Below, piece by piece: positions 3,876 to 59,649 of a DNA stretch of 64,000 nt. Position numbers and translations under genes: made by a program. The stretch's first letter is position 1; every line of letters starts with the position of its first letter. The DNA comes from an uncultured Dehalococcoidia bacterium (GTDB lineage: Bacteria; Chloroflexota; Dehalococcoidia; DSTF01; JACRBR01): contig CAYWOO010000192.1 in NCBI GenBank assembly GCA_964458665.1, forward strand, positions 6,984-70,983, in the 5' to 3' direction. The notes under the pieces are model-generated. The model saw nothing but the letters and a program-made list of their open reading frames with translations, did no database searches and had not been told where the DNA came from.

Positions 3876-3950
3876 GCAGCTCGTAGTTGTCGTTCAGCAC
3901 GCGTCCGCCTCCAGCGGGCGCGTTTGGCATGGTCCTCCTTCACCCACCGA

Positions 3951-3982
3951 AAATGGAGCGCGGGCGTCCCGCCCGTCCCTCC
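3951..3982. repeat. Hairpin repeat family E (AATGGAGCGCGGGCGyCCCGCCCGT)
   Basis: The same element recurs at 8001..8031 and 63380..63413. It occurs in reverse orientation at 56310..56340 and 58754..58782. Confidence 0.85.
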
Positions 3983-4014
3983 GCGTCCTCCAACACCGCA
4001 CCTATACTGCGCCC

Positions 4015-5598
4015 ATGACCGACCTCATCCTTCGCAACGCGCAGATCTGGACCGGCGACGCCACCGCGCCGTATGCCGATACCGCGATCGTCCGTGACGG
4101 GCGTTTCGTCTTCGTCGGACGCTCGCAGGATGCGGCGGCTCCGTCCGACGTGGACGTGTTCGACGCGGGCGGACGACTCGTTCTGCCCGGCTTCACCGAT
4201 AGCCACGCGCACCTGCTCGGCACTGGCCTCGCGATGCAGTCGGTCGATCTGAAAGGCGTGCCGAGCGTGGCCGAGGCGCTACAGCGGGTCGCCGAGCGCG
4301 TCGCTGTATCGCCGGAAGGCGCCTGGGTGCGCGGCGCGGGTTGGGACCAGCACGACTGGCCGGGCGCGCGCTTCCCGCATCGGCGCGAACTCGACACCAT
4401 CGCGCCGGAGCATCCGGTCGTGCTTACGCACACCTCCGGCCACTGCGTCTGGGTGAACAGCGCGGCGCTCCGCGCCGCCGCCATTACCGCAGCGACCATC
4501 GCGCCGACGGGCGGAGCGATTGACATTGGCGACGACGGCGCGCCCACGGGCATCCTGCGCGACAACGCGTCGCGCCTCATCAGCGATGTCGCGCCGAAGC
4601 TGGCACGGAACGAGCGCATCACCACGATGGAGCAGGCGATCGCACACGCGCACAGCCTCGGTGTAACCGGCGCGCACGCGATGGATGTCGGGCGCGGCGA
4701 ACTGCAGGCATTGCACGCGCTCAACGACTCCGGACGGCTGCGATTGCGCGTACGGCCCTTCATGTCGGCTGGCGCGCTGGACGAGTGGTTCGACCGCAAC
4801 CTGGCTACGGGCGACGGCGGCGATATGCTGCGCATCGGCGGCGTGAAGTTCTTCGCCGACGGCGCGCTCGGCTCCATGACGTCATGGATGCTCGAACCGT
4901 GCGAGGGCAGCGATGACACCGGCCTGGCACTCCAGCCGGCCGGCGAACTGGAGCGCGACGTGCGCCGCTGTCTCGAACACGGCCTGGCGACCGCCATCCA
5001 CGCAATCGGCGACCGCGCGAACCGCGAAGTGCTCGACATCATCGCCCGGACGCAGAACGTCGCCCCGGATCTGCCGCGACGCATCGAGCACGCGCAACTG
5101 CTGGCGGCGCCCGACATCGCACGCTTCGCCTACTACGGCGTGACGGCATCGGTGCAGCCGATCCACGCGACGCAGGATATGGCGAAGGTCGATCGGGCAT
5201 GGGGCGCCCGCGGCGTCGGCGCCTACGCGTTCGCGTCGCTGCGCAGCCTGGGCGTCAATCTCGCATTCGGGTCCGATACGCCCGTCGAGACGATGGATCC
5301 GCTCGCCGGCGTACAGGCCGCCGTCACGCGCCGCAACGCCGCGGGCGAGCCGCCCGGCGGCTGGTATCCGCAACAGCGACTGACTGCCATGGAAGCCATC
5401 GCGGCGTACACAACGGGTGCAGCCGAGGCCGTGCGCGAGAGCGCGACCCTCGGCCGGATCGCGCCCGGCTACCACGCGGACTTCGTCCTGCTTTCCGAAA
5501 ACATCCTCACGGCCGCCGATCCGATGCGCATCGCGGATGCGCGCGTCGAAGCAACGGTGGTCGGCGGCGAAATCGTCTATCGGCGATCTGCCGTGTGA
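4015..5598 (+). CDS. Amidohydrolase-family metal-dependent hydrolase (YtcJ-like)
   Basis: 527 aa. N-terminus LILRNAQIWTGD...LPGFTDSHAHL carries the HxH metal motif. The C-terminal GSDTPVE and ADFVLL motifs are typical of Amidohydro_3 proteins. Confidence 0.8.
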   Translation: MTDLILRNAQIWTGDATAPYADTAIVRDGRFVFVGRSQDAAAPSDVDVFDAGGRLVLPGFTDSHAHLLGTGLAMQSVDLKGVPSVAEALQRVAERVAVSPEGAWVRGAGWDQHDWPGARFPHRRELDTIAPEHPVVLTHTSGHCVWVNSAALRAAAITAATIAPTGGAIDIGDDGAPTGILRDNASRLISDVAPKLARNERITTMEQAIAHAHSLGVTGAHAMDVGRGELQALHALNDSGRLRLRVRPFMSAGALDEWFDRNLATGDGGDMLRIGGVKFFADGALGSMTSWMLEPCEGSDDTGLALQPAGELERDVRRCLEHGLATAIHAIGDRANREVLDIIARTQNVAPDLPRRIEHAQLLAAPDIARFAYYGVTASVQPIHATQDMAKVDRAWGARGVGAYAFASLRSLGVNLAFGSDTPVETMDPLAGVQAAVTRRNAAGEPPGGWYPQQRLTAMEAIAAYTTGAAEAVRESATLGRIAPGYHADFVLLSENILTAADPMRIADARVEATVVGGEIVYRRSAV

Positions 5599-5656
5599 CT
5601 ACGGGCCATCCGGCCCCTGCGACACCGCCACGTCTTTCGAGTAACCTGACACTGGC

Positions 5657-6910
5657 ATGAGCAAGACATGGATCGTCGCCGCGCTCACCATTGCACTCGC
5701 CTTGACGGCGTGTGACAGCCGTATCAAGAGTTCATCGGTCAACACGCCCGCAGCCGGTTCGAGTGCTACCGCCGCCGCGCCACCCGCTCCGACGCCCGTT
5801 CCGGTTTCCGTGCCGCCCAAGCCCGCATCGTTCTCCGACTACGCGCCCGTGATCGCCGCGTACCTCACGGCGGATCCCGCGGCGGCTGGTGATACGTGCC
5901 TCGCCGACCTCATCGCGGCGTGGAAGATGCCACTCGTGATAGCCGCAGCTGGCTGCATCGCCGCGAACACGGACGAAGACCTCGAGAGCGAGGTCGTTGC
6001 CGTGCTGACGACGAAGCTCACGACGCCCAGCGCAACCACGGACACACAGTTCACGATCGTTGTGTTCGGTCCTTCGCCCAACGGCTTCAAAGTAGCCTAC
6101 GAGTCCGGCCCGAACGACGTCGTCCCGCCCGGCACGACGCAGCCGATCAAGCCGCTGCTGGCCGCCGGCGATCTGAACAAGGACGGTGGCGGCGAACTGG
6201 CATTCCTCACGGCGAGCTGCGGCGCGAGTACGTGCATCCAGACGGTGCATATCCTCAAGGGTACGGCCGCGGGCTACGTGTCGATTGCCCCGCCTGACGG
6301 GATCTCGATGCCGTTCGCCGACGCGAAGTTCGAAGACGTGGAGGACGACGGTGCGAAGGAGCTGCTGCTCCACGGCGGCGCGCAGGGCAGCGCCGGCGCC
6401 GGGCCGCAGCGCACGCGCACGGAGACGTGGGCATGGAACGGAGCCGCGTACGCGCTCCGATCGACACAGCAGGACAAGGCAACGTATCTCTATCACGCGG
6501 TGAAGGATGCCGACGCGCTGTTCACGGCCGCAAAGTACGGCGACGCCGAAGCGGCGTACGCGGCGGTCGTCGGCGATTCGTCGCTGCTGGCGTGGATGGA
6601 GGAAAAGCACGAGCGTAACGAGCTGCAGTCGTACTCCTTGTTCCGCGCCGGCCTCGCCTTGCTGCTGGCGGGCGGCGACACCGCGAAGGCGAACGCCTAC
6701 TTCGATCGCGCACGTTCCTACCAGCCGCAGACACTGCACGACCAGCTCGCTGGCTCGTTCAAGGCGGGATACGCGGCGAAGGGCAGCGTCAGCGTCGGCT
6801 GCGCGGCCGTGCGCGACGATATCGCCGCGAATCTCGCGGAATACCAGGCGTTTTGGGACTTCGGCTACGCAAATCCGCCGTTCGACGCCGACACGATCTG
6901 CCCCTTCTGA
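5657..6910 (+). CDS. Putative lipoprotein with FG-GAP-like Ca-binding segments
   Basis: Signal peptide with lipobox LALTAC, then an Ala/Pro-rich linker. Contains AAGDLNKDGGGELAF and FEDVEDDGAKELLLHGG segments. The C-terminus is helical and TPR-like. Confidence 0.6.
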   Translation: MSKTWIVAALTIALALTACDSRIKSSSVNTPAAGSSATAAAPPAPTPVPVSVPPKPASFSDYAPVIAAYLTADPAAAGDTCLADLIAAWKMPLVIAAAGCIAANTDEDLESEVVAVLTTKLTTPSATTDTQFTIVVFGPSPNGFKVAYESGPNDVVPPGTTQPIKPLLAAGDLNKDGGGELAFLTASCGASTCIQTVHILKGTAAGYVSIAPPDGISMPFADAKFEDVEDDGAKELLLHGGAQGSAGAGPQRTRTETWAWNGAAYALRSTQQDKATYLYHAVKDADALFTAAKYGDAEAAYAAVVGDSSLLAWMEEKHERNELQSYSLFRAGLALLLAGGDTAKANAYFDRARSYQPQTLHDQLAGSFKAGYAAKGSVSVGCAAVRDDIAANLAEYQAFWDFGYANPPFDADTICPF

Positions 6911-49808: not shown

Positions 49809-51272
49809 ATGACCATCGAAGCGCGCATTGAATACGTCACGACGGACGAGGGCGTGAGCCTCGCCTGCACGAAGTTTGGCAGCGGGCCGCCGCTCATCTT
49901 TCACTTCTCTGGTCCGTATGTTTCGCACTTCGAGATGGAGTTCGAGTTTCCTCCCGTACAGGCGGCCTGCGAGGCACTCGCGCGTGTGGCTACGGTTATC
50001 CGATACGACTTCCGAAACACGGGATTATCGACGAGAGGCGTCGAGGACGTCTCCGTCGCGGCGCATGTCCGCGATCTGGACGCCGTGATGCGGCACTTCC
50101 AGCTCGAGTCTGCCGCGCTCCTGTACCCGTTTCATGCTGCGAAGATTGCCGTCGAGTACGCCGCCGCGCAACCCGAGCGCGTGACCGCGCTCGTGCTCTG
50201 GGCGGCGAACCTGGACGCTGCGGGATCCCGATGGGGGACGCCCGTGACCGACATTCTGAAGGCAGCGCTGCGCCTGGGACACGAAGCGTACGCGTCGCTT
50301 TTTGCGGTGATGACCGTCGGGCTCGAGGCTCACGCGAATGCTGCTTGGTACGCGCGATGGGTCTGTGAAGCTTCGAATCTCGATGACTTAATCCGCGTCG
50401 AGGCAGCAATCCACGCGCACAACTCCCGTGAAGCCGCCGTGCGAGTGCGGACGCCAACGCTCTTCGCGAGCCGGCGCTTGCCCTTTTACAACCTCGGCCC
50501 TCCAAGCCCGGAGATGATTCGCGAGCATCGTGCGTTAACAACACACATCGCTGCAACGATCCCCGGCGCCCAGTCGGCCTCGTTCGACGGAACCTCCGCG
50601 TGGATCTCGGGCGACGAGTTCGTCACTGGCCGGATCCCGAAGTTTCTCAACGAGATCCTCGCGAAAGGAGATCCGCAGGGAATCGACTCAGCTGCACCGA
50701 CATCCGGCGGCCTCCGAACGGTGCTCTTCACCGACATCGTCGGCCACACGGAGATGATGCGGCGGCTGGGCGACGCGAAGGGACGCGACGTGCTGCGCGA
50801 GCACGAACGGATCACGCGCGAGACGCTGAAGGCGCATGGCGGCGCGGAAGTGAAGACGATGGGCGACGGGTTCATGGCGTCGTTCGGCAGCGTCACGTCG
50901 GCGATGGAGTGCGCGATCGCGTTGCAGCGGGCCTTCGACGGAGCCCTCACCTCGCCACGGCGAGTCGATGACCGGCCCTCCGGGCCACCTTCTCCTAGAG
51001 GGGGAGAGGGACGCGGGAACGACGAGCGTATCGCGATCCGGATCGGGTTGAACGCCGGGGAGCCGATCGAGGAAGACGGCGACCTGTTCGGTGCGACGGT
51101 GATCCTGGCGTCGCGCATTGCCGCGAAGGCGGGGGCTGGGGAAATCTTCATCCCGGAACCGGTGCGGCACTTGCTCTCCGGTAAGGCGTTCGCGTTCTCG
51201 GATCGCGGCGAGTACGCGATGAAGGGCTTCGACGATTCCGTGCGACTGTACGAAGTCCGCTGGCGGGAGTAG
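49809..51272 (+). CDS. Alpha/beta-hydrolase-fold + class III cyclase fusion (paralog 4) carrying an in-frame REP insertion
   Basis: The cyclase half is near-identical to paralog 3 (TVLFTDIVGHTEMM...MGDGFMASFGSVTSAMECAIALQRAF). It differs by an extra loop, GALTSPRRVDDRPSGPPSPRGGEGRGNDER. Confidence 0.85.
   Translation: MTIEARIEYVTTDEGVSLACTKFGSGPPLIFHFSGPYVSHFEMEFEFPPVQAACEALARVATVIRYDFRNTGLSTRGVEDVSVAAHVRDLDAVMRHFQLESAALLYPFHAAKIAVEYAAAQPERVTALVLWAANLDAAGSRWGTPVTDILKAALRLGHEAYASLFAVMTVGLEAHANAAWYARWVCEASNLDDLIRVEAAIHAHNSREAAVRVRTPTLFASRRLPFYNLGPPSPEMIREHRALTTHIAATIPGAQSASFDGTSAWISGDEFVTGRIPKFLNEILAKGDPQGIDSAAPTSGGLRTVLFTDIVGHTEMMRRLGDAKGRDVLREHERITRETLKAHGGAEVKTMGDGFMASFGSVTSAMECAIALQRAFDGALTSPRRVDDRPSGPPSPRGGEGRGNDERIAIRIGLNAGEPIEEDGDLFGATVILASRIAAKAGAGEIFIPEPVRHLLSGKAFAFSDRGEYAMKGFDDSVRLYEVRWRE
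50943..51011 (+). repeat. Family A REP-like element inside the paralog 4 CDS
   Basis: gccctcacc[tcgccacggcgagtcgatga]ccggccctccgggccaccttctcctagagggggagagggac. Same subtype as the intergenic copies at 30076..30217. Confidence 0.8.
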
Positions 51273-56374: not shown

Positions 56375-57994
56375 ATGCCGCGCGCGCTTGCTACGGTGTC
56401 GCACACGATGGCTGATTCGCTTCCGCACTTTTCGCTTGCTGATGCTGCCGGCGCCGCGCGTGCGTTTCCTGCGGGACGGCATGCGTTGCTCTGCTTTGTG
56501 AAGCAGGACTGCCCGACGTGCGTACTGACGCTGCCGTTGATTGAGGCGGCGCATCGCGCGTTCGGCCGGGCGATCGATGTGTGGGCGATCTCCCAGGACG
56601 ACGCGGCGGCTCGTGTAGCGGTGGCTAAAGCGCACGGTCTTACGATGCCGCTGCTGGACGATTCCGCGCTGGCGGTTTCGTTCGCGCACGACCTCGATAC
56701 GGTACCGACGATCATCCTCGCGGACGGCACGGGCACGGAGCTGCGCCGGTTCGTTGGGTTTGGGAGGTCGGACTGGCAAGAACTGTACGGCGAGCTTGCT
56801 GCGATCAGCGGCGTCGCGACGCCAGAGATCGACTGGTCGTCGTATCCGGAGATGCGGCCGGGTTGCGGATCGAAATTCGTCGATCCGGCGATTGCTGAGC
56901 GACTGCTCGCCGAGTCGTCGGGGAGCCCGCTGCGGGCGCGTCGCATCGAGATCGCGGACTCGGACGATGTGTTCGAGTTCATGTTCGACCAGGGGCTGAC
57001 GGATGGGCTGCCTGTGGTGCCGCCGACGCCGGAGCGCGTGCTGCACATGCTGGCCGGCACGAAGCGCGCCGCCCAGGACGTCGTGGCGATCGTGCCGCCG
57101 AACATGGCGCCGGCGACGGTCGAGAAGGTCGCCGTGAACGCGGTGATGGCGGGCTGCACGCCGGAGTATCTGCCCGTCGTCATCGCCGCGCTGGAAGCCG
57201 TGTGCACCGATGAGTTCAACATCCACGGCGTCAACTCCACGACGTGGGGTGCGACGCCGACTCTGGTCGTGAACGGGCCGATCCGCCACCGCATCGGCAT
57301 GAACATGGGGCTGAACGCGCTCGGCCAGGGCAACCGCGCCAACTCGACGATCGGGCGCGCGCTGAAGCTCGTGCTGCGCAACGTCGGTGGCGCGAAGCCG
57401 TCCGGCACCGAGCGGCCGACGTTGGGCTGGCCGGGGCGCATCACGTCGTGCTTCGCCGAATGGGAGGAGCGCAGCCCATGGGAGCCGCTGCACGTCGAGC
57501 GCGGCTTTCGCGCGGACGAGAACGTTGTCACCGTGATCGCGACGGAGGGGCCGCATCAGATCGCCGACCAGGTGTCGCGCACGGCGCACGCGCTGGGCGG
57601 CAGCATCGGCCTGGGGCTGGAAGCGTTCTGGCACCCGAAGAGCCACAACCAGGGCGACATCTTGCTGGTGATCTGTCCGGAGCACGCCGACACGCTCGCT
57701 CGCGACGGCTGGACGAAGGCCGATCTACGCGCGCGCATTCAGCAGATCACGTCGCGACCCATGCGGGACCTGCTCGGCGATGACGAAAGCGGCGAGGGGC
57801 ACCAGCGAAGCTGGTACGGCGCGGCGGGCCCGACGGAGGCACAGCTTGCGACGCTCGTGCCGAAGTTCCGCGCGCCAGAGTACATTCACATCGCCGTCGC
57901 CGGCAGCGAAGCGGGCAAGTTCTCGACAGCGTACGGCGGCTGGGTGCTGGCGCCGATCGGGTCGAACCCTGTGAGTCGCAAGATCGAGGGCTGA
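56375..57994 (+). CDS. Thioredoxin-like (CPTC) domain fused to a large uncharacterised domain
   Basis: 539 aa. N-terminal LLCFVKQDCPTCVLTLP thioredoxin-fold motif, then RPGCGSKF, then about 370 aa with no motif I recognise. An alternative start lies at 56408. Confidence 0.75.
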   Translation: MPRALATVSHTMADSLPHFSLADAAGAARAFPAGRHALLCFVKQDCPTCVLTLPLIEAAHRAFGRAIDVWAISQDDAAARVAVAKAHGLTMPLLDDSALAVSFAHDLDTVPTIILADGTGTELRRFVGFGRSDWQELYGELAAISGVATPEIDWSSYPEMRPGCGSKFVDPAIAERLLAESSGSPLRARRIEIADSDDVFEFMFDQGLTDGLPVVPPTPERVLHMLAGTKRAAQDVVAIVPPNMAPATVEKVAVNAVMAGCTPEYLPVVIAALEAVCTDEFNIHGVNSTTWGATPTLVVNGPIRHRIGMNMGLNALGQGNRANSTIGRALKLVLRNVGGAKPSGTERPTLGWPGRITSCFAEWEERSPWEPLHVERGFRADENVVTVIATEGPHQIADQVSRTAHALGGSIGLGLEAFWHPKSHNQGDILLVICPEHADTLARDGWTKADLRARIQQITSRPMRDLLGDDESGEGHQRSWYGAAGPTEAQLATLVPKFRAPEYIHIAVAGSEAGKFSTAYGGWVLAPIGSNPVSRKIEG

Positions 57995-58187
57995 CGGTTC
58001 ACCGCGGAGCCGCGGAGAGCACAGAGGAGGATTGGGGTTCGCCGCGGGGCCCGCAGAGAGCACTGAGGATAAGCCGTTGAGGCGGCCCTGCGTGGCCGCC
58101 CGCGGCGTGCGAATTGGTAGTTGCGTTCGCACCCGATGCGGGCGTAGGTTTAGCGCACGACGTGACGCGAACGAAACGGAGAACACG

Positions 58188-58709
58188 ATGACAACTATCA
58201 TCCTCGACCCGACGGACGAGCGGGTGCCGGTGCGCCGGGCGCTGACGGCGCGGCCGGAATCGATCACTGGCACCGTAGCGCTGCTGGATATCGGCAAGCC
58301 GCGGGGGAACGTGCTGATCGATCGGTTGCAGGTGCGGTTGGCCGACCGGCTGCCTGGCGTGGAGCTCAAGCGGTATCGCAAGCCGACGTTCACAAAGCCG
58401 GCGCCGGATGAGCTGCGCCGCCAGATCGCAAAGGAGTGCGGCTTCGTTATCGAAGCGCTTGCCGATTGAGGCTCCTGCACAACGTGCAGTGTGCACGACA
58501 GCGTCTGGTTCGAAATCAATAGCAGGCCCACGGTGTTCATCGCGTCGTCGGAGTTCGTCGAGGCCGCGGACGCGCAGGCGGTCGCGCTCGGGCTGCCCGA
58601 GGTGCGCCGTATCTTCGTGCCGCATCCGATCCAGGACGCGACGGACGATGAGATGCGCGCGAAGGCGGATGCGATCGTGGAGCAGATCATCGAGGCGTTA
58701 GTGGACTAG
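58188..58709 (+). CDS. Candidate selenoprotein with a U-G-S-C motif (in-frame TGA at 58467..58469 read as Sec)
   Basis: ATG at 58188 lies 6 nt after GGAG. Track ORFs 58032..58469 and 58491..58709 are in the same frame and separated only by the TGA. Joined they read ...IEALAD-U-GSCTTCSVHDSVWFEIN.... The downstream part has no ATG or SD of its own. Confidence 0.65.
58475..58495 (+). promoter_or_regulatory. SECIS-like hairpin(s) just 3' of the in-frame TGA
   Basis: Two alternative folds: CTGCAC-aac-GTGCAG (58475..58489), or TGCACA-acgtgcag-TGTGCA (58476..58495). They begin 6-7 nt after the TGA. Confidence 0.45.
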
Positions 58710-58740: not shown

Positions 58741-58782
58741 GCGGAGAGGGGACGACAGGCGGGGCGCCCGCGCTCCATTTTG
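58741..58782. repeat. Family A tail fused to a reverse family E element
   Basis: gcggagaggggacgac + aggcggggcgcccgcgctccattttg. Same orientation as the copy at 56310..56340. Confidence 0.8.
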
Positions 58783-58849: not shown

Positions 58850-59649
58850 ATGGACAACGATGATCAACAGCGCGTTGCGGCGGGCTACAACGCCGTGTAT
58901 GCGGCCATTCCGAAGAGTCCCACCTTGGCGCGCATCTGGCGCGAGCACGCTCTCGGGGATGACTATCCGGCGGGGTTCGAGCACATCAGCTTCGTCACGC
59001 TTGCAGAGCTCGGCACGATCGCGAGCGAGTTGCGGCTCGATGCCAACTCGGCGTTTGTTGATCTGGCTTGCGGCTTGGGGGGACCGGGGCTGTGGGTTGC
59101 TCGCGAGACGGGGGCGCAGCTCACGGGCATCGATCTGTCGTCGGTGGCGGTGGCCGGCGCGCGCGAACCCGCAGCCGGGTTGGGGCTGTCGGGCGTCGCG
59201 CAGTTCTCCGGTGGCACATTTGCAGAGACTGGCCTGAAGGCTGCGCGTTCAAGGGCGCGATGAGCTGTGACGCGCTGCAGTACGCGCCGGACAAACAGGC
59301 GGCGCTGAACGAGGCCGCGCGCATCCTCCGCCCCGGTGGACGACTCGTCTTCGCGTGCTTCGAATTCGACGCAGCGCGAGTGGCCGGTCTTCCTGTGCTC
59401 GGCACGGACCCGGTCGGTGACTATCGACCGTTGCTCGAACGGGCAGGCTTCGATGTATCGAGCTACGCCGAGACGCCGGGCTGGCGCGAACGACTGACGG
59501 CGGCGTATCAGGGCATCGCCGATGCGAAGACGTCGCTTGGAGACGAGATGGGCGTCGCGGCGTATTCCTCGCTGCTTGGCGAGGTGGCGCTCACGCTGCA
59601 GATACAGCCGTACCGAAGTCGCGTGCTCGTTTCGGCAACCAGACGCTAG
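58850..59649 (+). pseudogene. Class I SAM-dependent methyltransferase with a frameshift
   Basis: Frame 1 (58850..59263) has VDLACGLGGPGLWVA motif I and ends ...GGTFAETGLKAARSRAR*. The continuation ...GAMSCDALQYAPDKQAALNEAARILRPGGRLVF is in the frame of track ORF 59068..59649. The shift is near 59230..59240. Confidence 0.75.

Follow-up and report, generated by a model that had tools for sequence, protein, structure and literature searches.

An in-frame TGA very probably read as selenocysteine in a UGSC-family gene, with a conserved SECIS-like hairpin and a likely upstream partner

A 64-kb stretch of DNA from an uncultured Dehalococcoidia bacterium (the whole of which is referred to here as the window) carries at 58188-58709 what we hold with high confidence to be one gene, encoding a 173-residue selenoprotein of the UGSC family, in which the TGA at 58467 very probably encodes selenocysteine (Sec). 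The gene is a new member of a family that has been known since 2007 and is represented by a curated NCBI model. New here are a conserved SECIS core at 58483-58497 in the register of fdhF, a link to a partner domain, and the prediction of a flavodoxin-like fold. The selenoprotein reading of the in-frame TGA had been put forward in an initial annotation of this DNA, and it is upheld by family cutoffs that the protein passes, by a TGA column that is TGA in 81 of 81 sequences, by Cys in distant homologs, and by conservation downstream of the codon.

From the ATG at 58188 to the TAG at 58707-58709 the window sequence forms a single frame whose sole internal stop is the TGA at 58467-58469. ORF calling places 58032..58469 and 58491..58709 in this common frame, and direct reading agrees with the initial annotation that they are split solely by that TGA. 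The read-through product of 173 codons runs ...KECGFVIEALAD-U-GSCTTCSVHDSVWFEINSRPTVF..., with GSCTTCSVHD following U, and the stop does occupy position 1 of a UxxC motif, as had been stated, the window reading EALAD-U-GSC. The proposed start, with its Shine-Dalgarno sequence, and the length of the product were confirmed by inspection and count (Table 1), and the N-terminus, MTTIILDPTDER, aligns with the N-termini of homologs. The downstream piece had been described as having no ATG and no Shine-Dalgarno of its own. Its track ORF starts at GTG 58491, there is indeed no ATG near that start, and no GGAGG-type Shine-Dalgarno is found in the preceding ~20 nt; an in-frame ATG is nonetheless present late in the piece (the Met of ...DDEMRAK...), and to that extent the description was too broad. 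Elsewhere in the window, which is 66% GC, TGA terminates 17 of 37 confident long ORFs, among them the gene immediately upstream. Five other same-frame ORF pairs (2701/3316, 51524/51881, 11813/12686, 13167/13992 and 5645/6911) were considered as read-through candidates and rejected as ordinary adjacent genes with their own starts, and a finer scan of the window for further in-frame TGA codons in a Cys or redox context found none.

Table 1. Features of the UGSC locus, in window coordinates
Feature	Coordinates	Strand	Remarks
Partner gene, 539 aa	56375..57994	+	ResA/TlpA-like thioredoxin N-domain (C46-P-T-C49) and ~390-aa domain
Shine-Dalgarno-like GGAG	58178..58181	+	6 nt before ATG 58188; direct reading
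UGSC-family selenoprotein gene (probable), complete	58188..58709	+	173 codons, Sec as codon 94, then TAG
UGA, very probably selenocysteine, residue 1 of U-G-S-C (UxxC)	58467..58469	+	Column TGA in 81/81; Cys in full-length relatives
Downstream 79 codons, C-terminal half (strands 4-5 and helices 3-5 of the model)	58470..58706	+	Conserved; NF041046 match
Invariant RNA core ACGUGCAGU[G/U]UGCA[C/U]GA	58482..58498	+	Codon invariance, 81 genomes
Terminator-like GC hairpin and T-run	58759..58781	+	~50 nt past TAG; consensus scan alone, weak evidence

Family membership was established with the joined protein, U being replaced by C for the purpose. Against NCBIfam NF041046, 'UGSC family (seleno)protein' (curated cutoff 125 bits), it reaches 157.4 bits over residues 29-171, and against Pfam PF24696, 'UGSC family' (cutoff 25), 158.5 bits, where the match covers 5-172 of 172; the family name that the initial annotation had given is thus a real one. 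When the two halves are searched as exact fragments without substitution, the upstream 93 aa match NF041046 positions 4-68 with 51.3 bits and the downstream 79 aa match positions 70-146 with 84.8 bits. Each is under the NF041046 cutoff singly, and the two are colinear, with model position 69 left for the TGA. The D-[U/C]-G-S-C motif is kept in the 81 Sec forms analysed below as well as in Cys forms.

Among 5.8 billion proteins searched, 179 relatives were found. The window UGSC protein is absent as such from this database, the best match having 82% identity over the N-terminal half. Nearly all of the close relatives (60-82% identity) are 95-100 aa long and end in ...EALAD, and they are therefore cut at the same codon. 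The few close matches that appear 'full-length' read EALAD-G-GSC (P0001) or EALAD-W-GSC (P0002, P0003), and the G and W are interpreted as a TGA that gene callers probably translated under code 25 and code 4, respectively. When one genome per species was scanned, relatives turned up in more than 472 genomes, and the best 80 loci were analysed together with the window, giving 81 sequences. These loci belong to Dehalococcoidia/Tepidiformaceae, other Chloroflexota, Binatia, and Gammaproteobacteria/Pseudomonadales MAGs, the closest among them being Dehalococcoidia MAGs with 88% identity. In this set (the best 80 of more than 472 loci, plus the window) the codon is TGA in every sequence and is followed by a continuation of 79-87 codons to a stop, an agreement much greater than chance would produce. 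Downstream columns combine invariant amino acids with free third positions (P+20, V+22, A+32, A+33, G+41, V+50), which is the signature of translation in frame past the TGA, and the continuation is, by this pattern of codon use, under purifying selection. A HMMER scan of 1.84 billion cluster representatives yielded 562 family clusters, made up of ~95-aa N-terminal stubs, ~65-75-aa C-terminal fragments, full-length proteins of 175-195 aa, and fusions, and these are the classes expected of a mis-called selenoprotein. The full-length relatives read D-C-G-S-C at the motif, with D96, C97, G98 and C100 each at least 90% conserved. The homolog alignment thereby bears out what the initial annotation had proposed to look for, a TGA column read as Sec in 81 of 81 close sequences and as Cys in full-length distant ones, with conservation spanning the downstream 79 codons. 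Its expectation that standard annotation would truncate or split such a gene was also correct, since most database homologs are ~95 aa long and run to ...EALAD, and others are fragments of ~65-75 aa that begin after the motif.

For the SECIS question a single-sequence fold was of little help. The stability of the 71 nt at 58460-58530 is not unusual (z = 0.31), a value that is uninformative, and comparative data were therefore needed; Rfam searches gave nothing relevant in the whole window at gathering thresholds or in 58400-58600 at E <= 10. Comparison of the 81 genomes showed zero codon entropy at codons +5 to +8 after the TGA, and at none of 65 other eligible columns. Codons +5 to +7 are ACG, UGC and AGU in all 81, and codon +8 is GUG in all 61 sequences that have Val there and UUG (Leu) in the other 20. 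The third base of Thr+4 is A, G, C or U in 30, 27, 22 and 2 sequences, respectively, versus ACG throughout for Thr+5. Likewise Ser+2 is encoded by UCN, with all four third bases in use, and Ser+7 by the rare AGU in 81 of 81; UUG at Leu+8 is, like AGU, a rare codon among the invariant ones. In this stretch lies a hairpin at 58483-58497, CGUGCA-GUG-UGCACG in the window and CGUGCA-GUK-UGCAYG in its family form, that begins 13 nt past the TGA and occupies nt 17-31 counted from the U of UGA, with G23 and U24 in the loop. Its six pairs can form in all 81 sequences (mean dG -7.0 kcal/mol), and the stem varies solely at pair 18-30, where G-C becomes G-U (C30 to U30) in 16 of 81; double-sided covariation within the hairpin was not found across the 81 sequences. 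The lower stems flanking the core differ by lineage. Two Cys-form genes are without a GU-loop hairpin at the UGSC SECIS register (-4.4 and -2.2 versus -7.4 kcal/mol), and the residues TTCS[V/L]HD, frozen in Sec forms, are variable in Cys forms.

Support for 58483-58497 as a SECIS-type hairpin comes from its invariance, its register and the exchange of G-C for G-U at pair 18-30. A SECIS element downstream of the TGA had been predicted in the initial annotation, and a SECIS-like element does lie there, but not at the coordinates given. The hairpins that had been offered, at 58475..58489 and 58476..58495, are both present in the window; as a conserved element they were rejected, all of their pairs being formable in 45 and 61 of the 81 sequences, respectively, versus 81 of 81 for 58483-58497. 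An extended form of the second is a thermodynamically competitive fold in about half of the sequences. It is proposed that the UGA at 58467 would be decoded by Sec-tRNA(Sec) delivered by SelB, and that SelB would be recruited by the short hairpin at 58483-58497 with its G23 U24 loop; selenium incorporation and SelB dependence are what we infer here by analogy with E. coli fdhF. The corresponding machinery was sought with tblastn, using E. coli SelA, SelB and SelD, and with ARAGORN for tRNA-Sec, in the window and the 80 loci. Neither gave a selA, selB, selD or selC, whether in the window itself or in the ~12-kb loci of the 80 relatives, which extend ~6 kb from UGSC, and the machinery would therefore be unlinked; the 64-kb window holds no tRNA genes of any kind.

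That the TGA is a true stop, leaving a pseudogene or split gene with a 93-aa product and perhaps a C-terminal fragment from GTG 58491, is what standard ORF calling would suggest, as it yields exactly such a split; many database entries are annotated as split, and the Sec machinery was not seen in the window. Against this, the codon is always TGA and never TAA or TAG in 81 of 81 genomes from several phyla, purifying selection acts in the same frame on the 79 codons that follow, and relatives have Cys at the TGA column. Moreover, neither half reaches the family cutoff singly while the joined protein passes it, with the halves colinear on the model, GTG 58491 is not preceded by a GGAGG-type Shine-Dalgarno, and the predicted domain needs both halves for one beta-sheet, so that a true stop is highly improbable. 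We attach even less probability to a genetic code that reads TGA as Trp (code 4) or as Gly (code 25). The EALAD-G-GSC of P0001 and the EALAD-W-GSC of P0002 and P0003 might be taken to speak for it, but such calls are best explained as gene-caller artefacts of alternative codes on short contigs; relatives carry Cys at the column, not Trp or Gly, and TGA ends 17 of the 37 confident long ORFs of the window, including the gene immediately upstream. Scarcely credible, to the same degree, is the idea that in this one genome a TGC or TGT Cys codon was misread in sequencing or assembly, or has recently mutated to a stop: TGA is one base from either codon, but it is common to all 80 independent related assemblies, and it is accompanied by the invariant downstream RNA core, which is absent from the two Cys-form genes examined.

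A different objection concerns the RNA. The downstream conservation might reflect protein constraint on C-T-T-C-S-V-H-D combined with codon bias, with no RNA element at all, the TGCA and GTGCAC palindromes being a chance product of codons for Cys, Thr, Val and His. The hairpin does lie within an amino-acid-invariant stretch, double-sided covariation is absent, and the fold z-score is unremarkable. Amino-acid constraint, however, cannot fix synonymous sites, and here Thr+5 is ACG and Ser+7 is AGU in 81 of 81 and Leu+8 is always UUG, whereas Thr+4 and Ser+2 are free; none of the 65 other columns is codon-invariant, and Cys-form relatives vary the same residues freely. This explanation is considered very improbable, and the reading of the locus as a UGSC-family selenoprotein gene with a SECIS-like hairpin is preferred.

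The gene upstream of the selenoprotein gene, which may in fact begin at the ATG located 11 codons further in, encodes a protein whose C-terminal ~390 aa (window 56825-57994) form a large, highly conserved region, here called the X domain. Its motifs include DGLPVVPPT, NAVMAGC, NSTIGRA (family consensus ANATIGRA) and SPWEPLHVERGF, and a family motif takes the form SPWEPxHVERGF. Two cysteines of this partner, C164 and C261, are invariant, and two more, C277 and C359, are nearly so. Profile and sequence searches of the C-terminal domain against Pfam, NCBIfam and PDB gave no match, the Trx domain alone being matched, and Foldseek matches of the full partner model were dominated by the Trx domain. 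The partner family (~530 aa) has at least 7,973 database matches, which are annotated as TlpA family or redoxin from the N-terminal domain alone; the best protein-database match of the window copy has 89% identity. A partner homolog is found upstream of UGSC on the same strand in 61 of the 80 loci, in all three phyla, and it is the sole widely conserved UGSC neighbour in these loci. The gap between the two genes has a median of ~2 nt and is mostly 0-70 nt in relatives; that of the window, at 193 nt, is atypically long. A 19-nt imperfect direct repeat occurs within it, at 58010-58028 and 58051-58069 (CCGCGGAGAGCACAGAGGA and CCGCAGAGAGCACTGAGGA).

Fusion proteins join the same two domains. In P0320, P0326, P0343 and P0263 a Cys-form UGSC domain is N-terminal to an X domain; the N-terminal parts of these proteins score 118-159 bits against PF24696, and P0320 is 42% identical to the partner C-domain over 342 aa (E 5e-72). 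A fusion called 'UGSC/Unknown_1' is noted in the 2008 GOS paper (PMC2398784), and its 'Unknown_1' is probably the same domain as the X domain. A Cys-form operon at L084 2476-5555 (also at L085) has the order GntR, TrxB-like flavoprotein (CATC), partner, UGSC, with a partner homolog that is 40% identical over 507 aa (E 1e-117) and has a stop/start overlap with UGSC, and this gene order hints at what may be an NAD(P)H-fed redox chain. Of the 81 Sec-form loci, 1 (L044) has a TrxR-like neighbour, and this association is not general. Because of gene neighbourhood and fusion, a functional partnership between UGSC and the protein encoded upstream is likely.

Several variations on this arrangement were recorded. 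In L001, the closest relative, a 667-aa gene on the opposite strand (3902-6000) lies between the partner gene and UGSC, and the operon is therefore broken in that lineage; the inserted gene is a candidate TPR-type regulator with an adenylate/guanylate-cyclase C-terminus, to judge from a look at its sequence. A Tepidiformaceae clade of ten loci (L011, L027, L033, L034, L059, L061, L063, L064, L066 and L067) has the variant motif ...VEGLAD-U-GSC; at these loci the partner gene is absent within 6 kb and may be encoded elsewhere, and most have a large downstream gene that is a candidate secA-like gene by its conserved C-terminal tail. The fusion P0263 (657 aa) begins with a weak NifU-like domain (CWDC) ahead of its Cys-form UGSC and X domains, and this part may point to some connection with the handling of Fe-S or metals.

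The fold was approached through an AlphaFold2 model of P0001, a 59%-identical homolog (pLDDT 85.7, pTM 0.81), which has five beta-alpha units; strand 3 leads straight into helix 3, whose N-terminus holds the Sec position. In this model both halves of the predicted domain are needed for one beta-sheet. The UGSC domain has no sequence similarity to PDB chains, and a Foldseek search of the model against PDB matched a flavodiiron flavodoxin domain, lumazine synthase, WrbA, azoreductases and CheY/TIR, the flavodoxin-like matches having E ~1e-5 and TM ~0.45-0.5; thioredoxin folds were not found among them. The 2008 paper had described UGSC as having a 'likely Trx-like fold' (PMC2398784). The model is suggestive of a flavodoxin-like fold and not a thioredoxin-like one, and only suggestive because it is a predicted model with moderate TM.

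The wider neighbourhood of the UGSC gene is one of housekeeping genes: folC, a nitroreductase-family gene, a TetR regulator, a frameshifted methyltransferase, an MBL-fold gene, an M23/LysM peptidase, obg and nadD. The methyltransferase, of the SAM-dependent kind, appears to be split by a frameshift at 58850-59649, where ORF 58850-59263 carries the N-terminal motifs and the overlapping ORF 59068-59649, in another frame, the C-terminal part; this is either a pseudogene or an assembly error. At 49809-51272, and unrelated to the UGSC finding, a 487-aa fusion of an alpha/beta-hydrolase and an adenylate/guanylate-cyclase resembles LipJ-type bifunctional lipase/cyclases and scores well under the equivalog cutoff.

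As to function, we infer redox chemistry for UGSC, an interaction with its partner, and a substrate. UGSC would be a small alpha/beta domain of the flavodoxin-like type whose third helix carries the U-G-S-C pair at its N-terminal end, a placement that in the model would be the usual geometry for a redox-active selenol/thiol pair. Most probably it would serve the product of the upstream gene as a redox-active partner, through selenenylsulfide/dithiol exchange with that protein's TlpA-like CPTC domain and/or its ~390-aa Cys-containing domain. The broader proposal is that a widespread, unnamed enzyme system has UGSC as its dedicated selenol/thiol redox subunit and the X domain as its catalytic part, with Trx-like CPTC, X and UGSC modules forming a relay that in some genomes would be fed by the adjacent TrxB-like flavoprotein; it has in our estimation about an even chance of being right. 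If true, it would supply a function for an orphan selenoprotein that is among the most abundant of its kind in aquatic metagenomes. Handles for experiment are provided by the partner link (synteny and fusion), the flavodoxin-like predicted fold and the very short invariant SECIS core. For annotation, gene calling that is not selenoprotein-aware emits a 93-aa (or 145-aa) stub and an orphan 72-aa ORF, and most homologs in the large protein collections searched are split in the same way as the window gene.

The 'UGSC-containing protein' was described by Zhang and Gladyshev in 2007 (PMC1976440) and 2008 (PMC2398784). In the GOS metagenomes it was a top-five selenoprotein family, with 255 Sec versus 21 Cys forms, and it was commoner in the non-marine samples (PMC2398784); a 2016 survey listed it with counts of 26 and 33 (PMC5029168), and a 2026 review places it, under NF041046, among prokaryotic selenoproteins of largely uncharacterised function (PMC13188914). 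The window copy and its relatives share with the known family the U-G-S-C motif, the alternation of Sec and Cys, a length of ~170-180 aa, an excess of Sec over Cys forms, and an origin in environmental and for the most part uncultured organisms, and the window copy presents no family-defining difference. With the thioredoxin-fold UxxC/CxxC oxidoreductases (Trx-like and Prx-like selenoproteins, TlpA/ResA) UGSC has in common a redox-type motif at a helix N-terminus, and it is genetically coupled to a TlpA/ResA-like CPTC domain; it differs from them in that its own domain, as predicted from homolog P0001, would be without the thioredoxin fold.

The closest counterpart for the RNA element is the SECIS of E. 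coli fdhF, in which G23 and U24 are the loop bases that contact SelB. The fdhF SECIS 42-mer used for comparison was verified by its match to fdhF in 5,419 of 5,426 E. coli genomes, with at least 99% identity in 5,413 records. The UGSC hairpin departs from that of fdhF in its 5' arm, has a triloop (G23 U24 K25) in place of a tetraloop, and lacks both an equivalent of the bulged U17 and a lower stem conserved in all sequences. In both, the hairpin is part of the coding sequence, follows shortly after the UGA and carries G23 U24 in its apical loop and U26 G27 C28 A29 C30 as its 3' arm, with an A-U closing pair, such that, counted from the U of UGA, G23 U24 C25 U26 G27 C28 A29 C30 of fdhF corresponds to G23 U24 K25 U26 G27 C28 A29 Y30 of UGSC.
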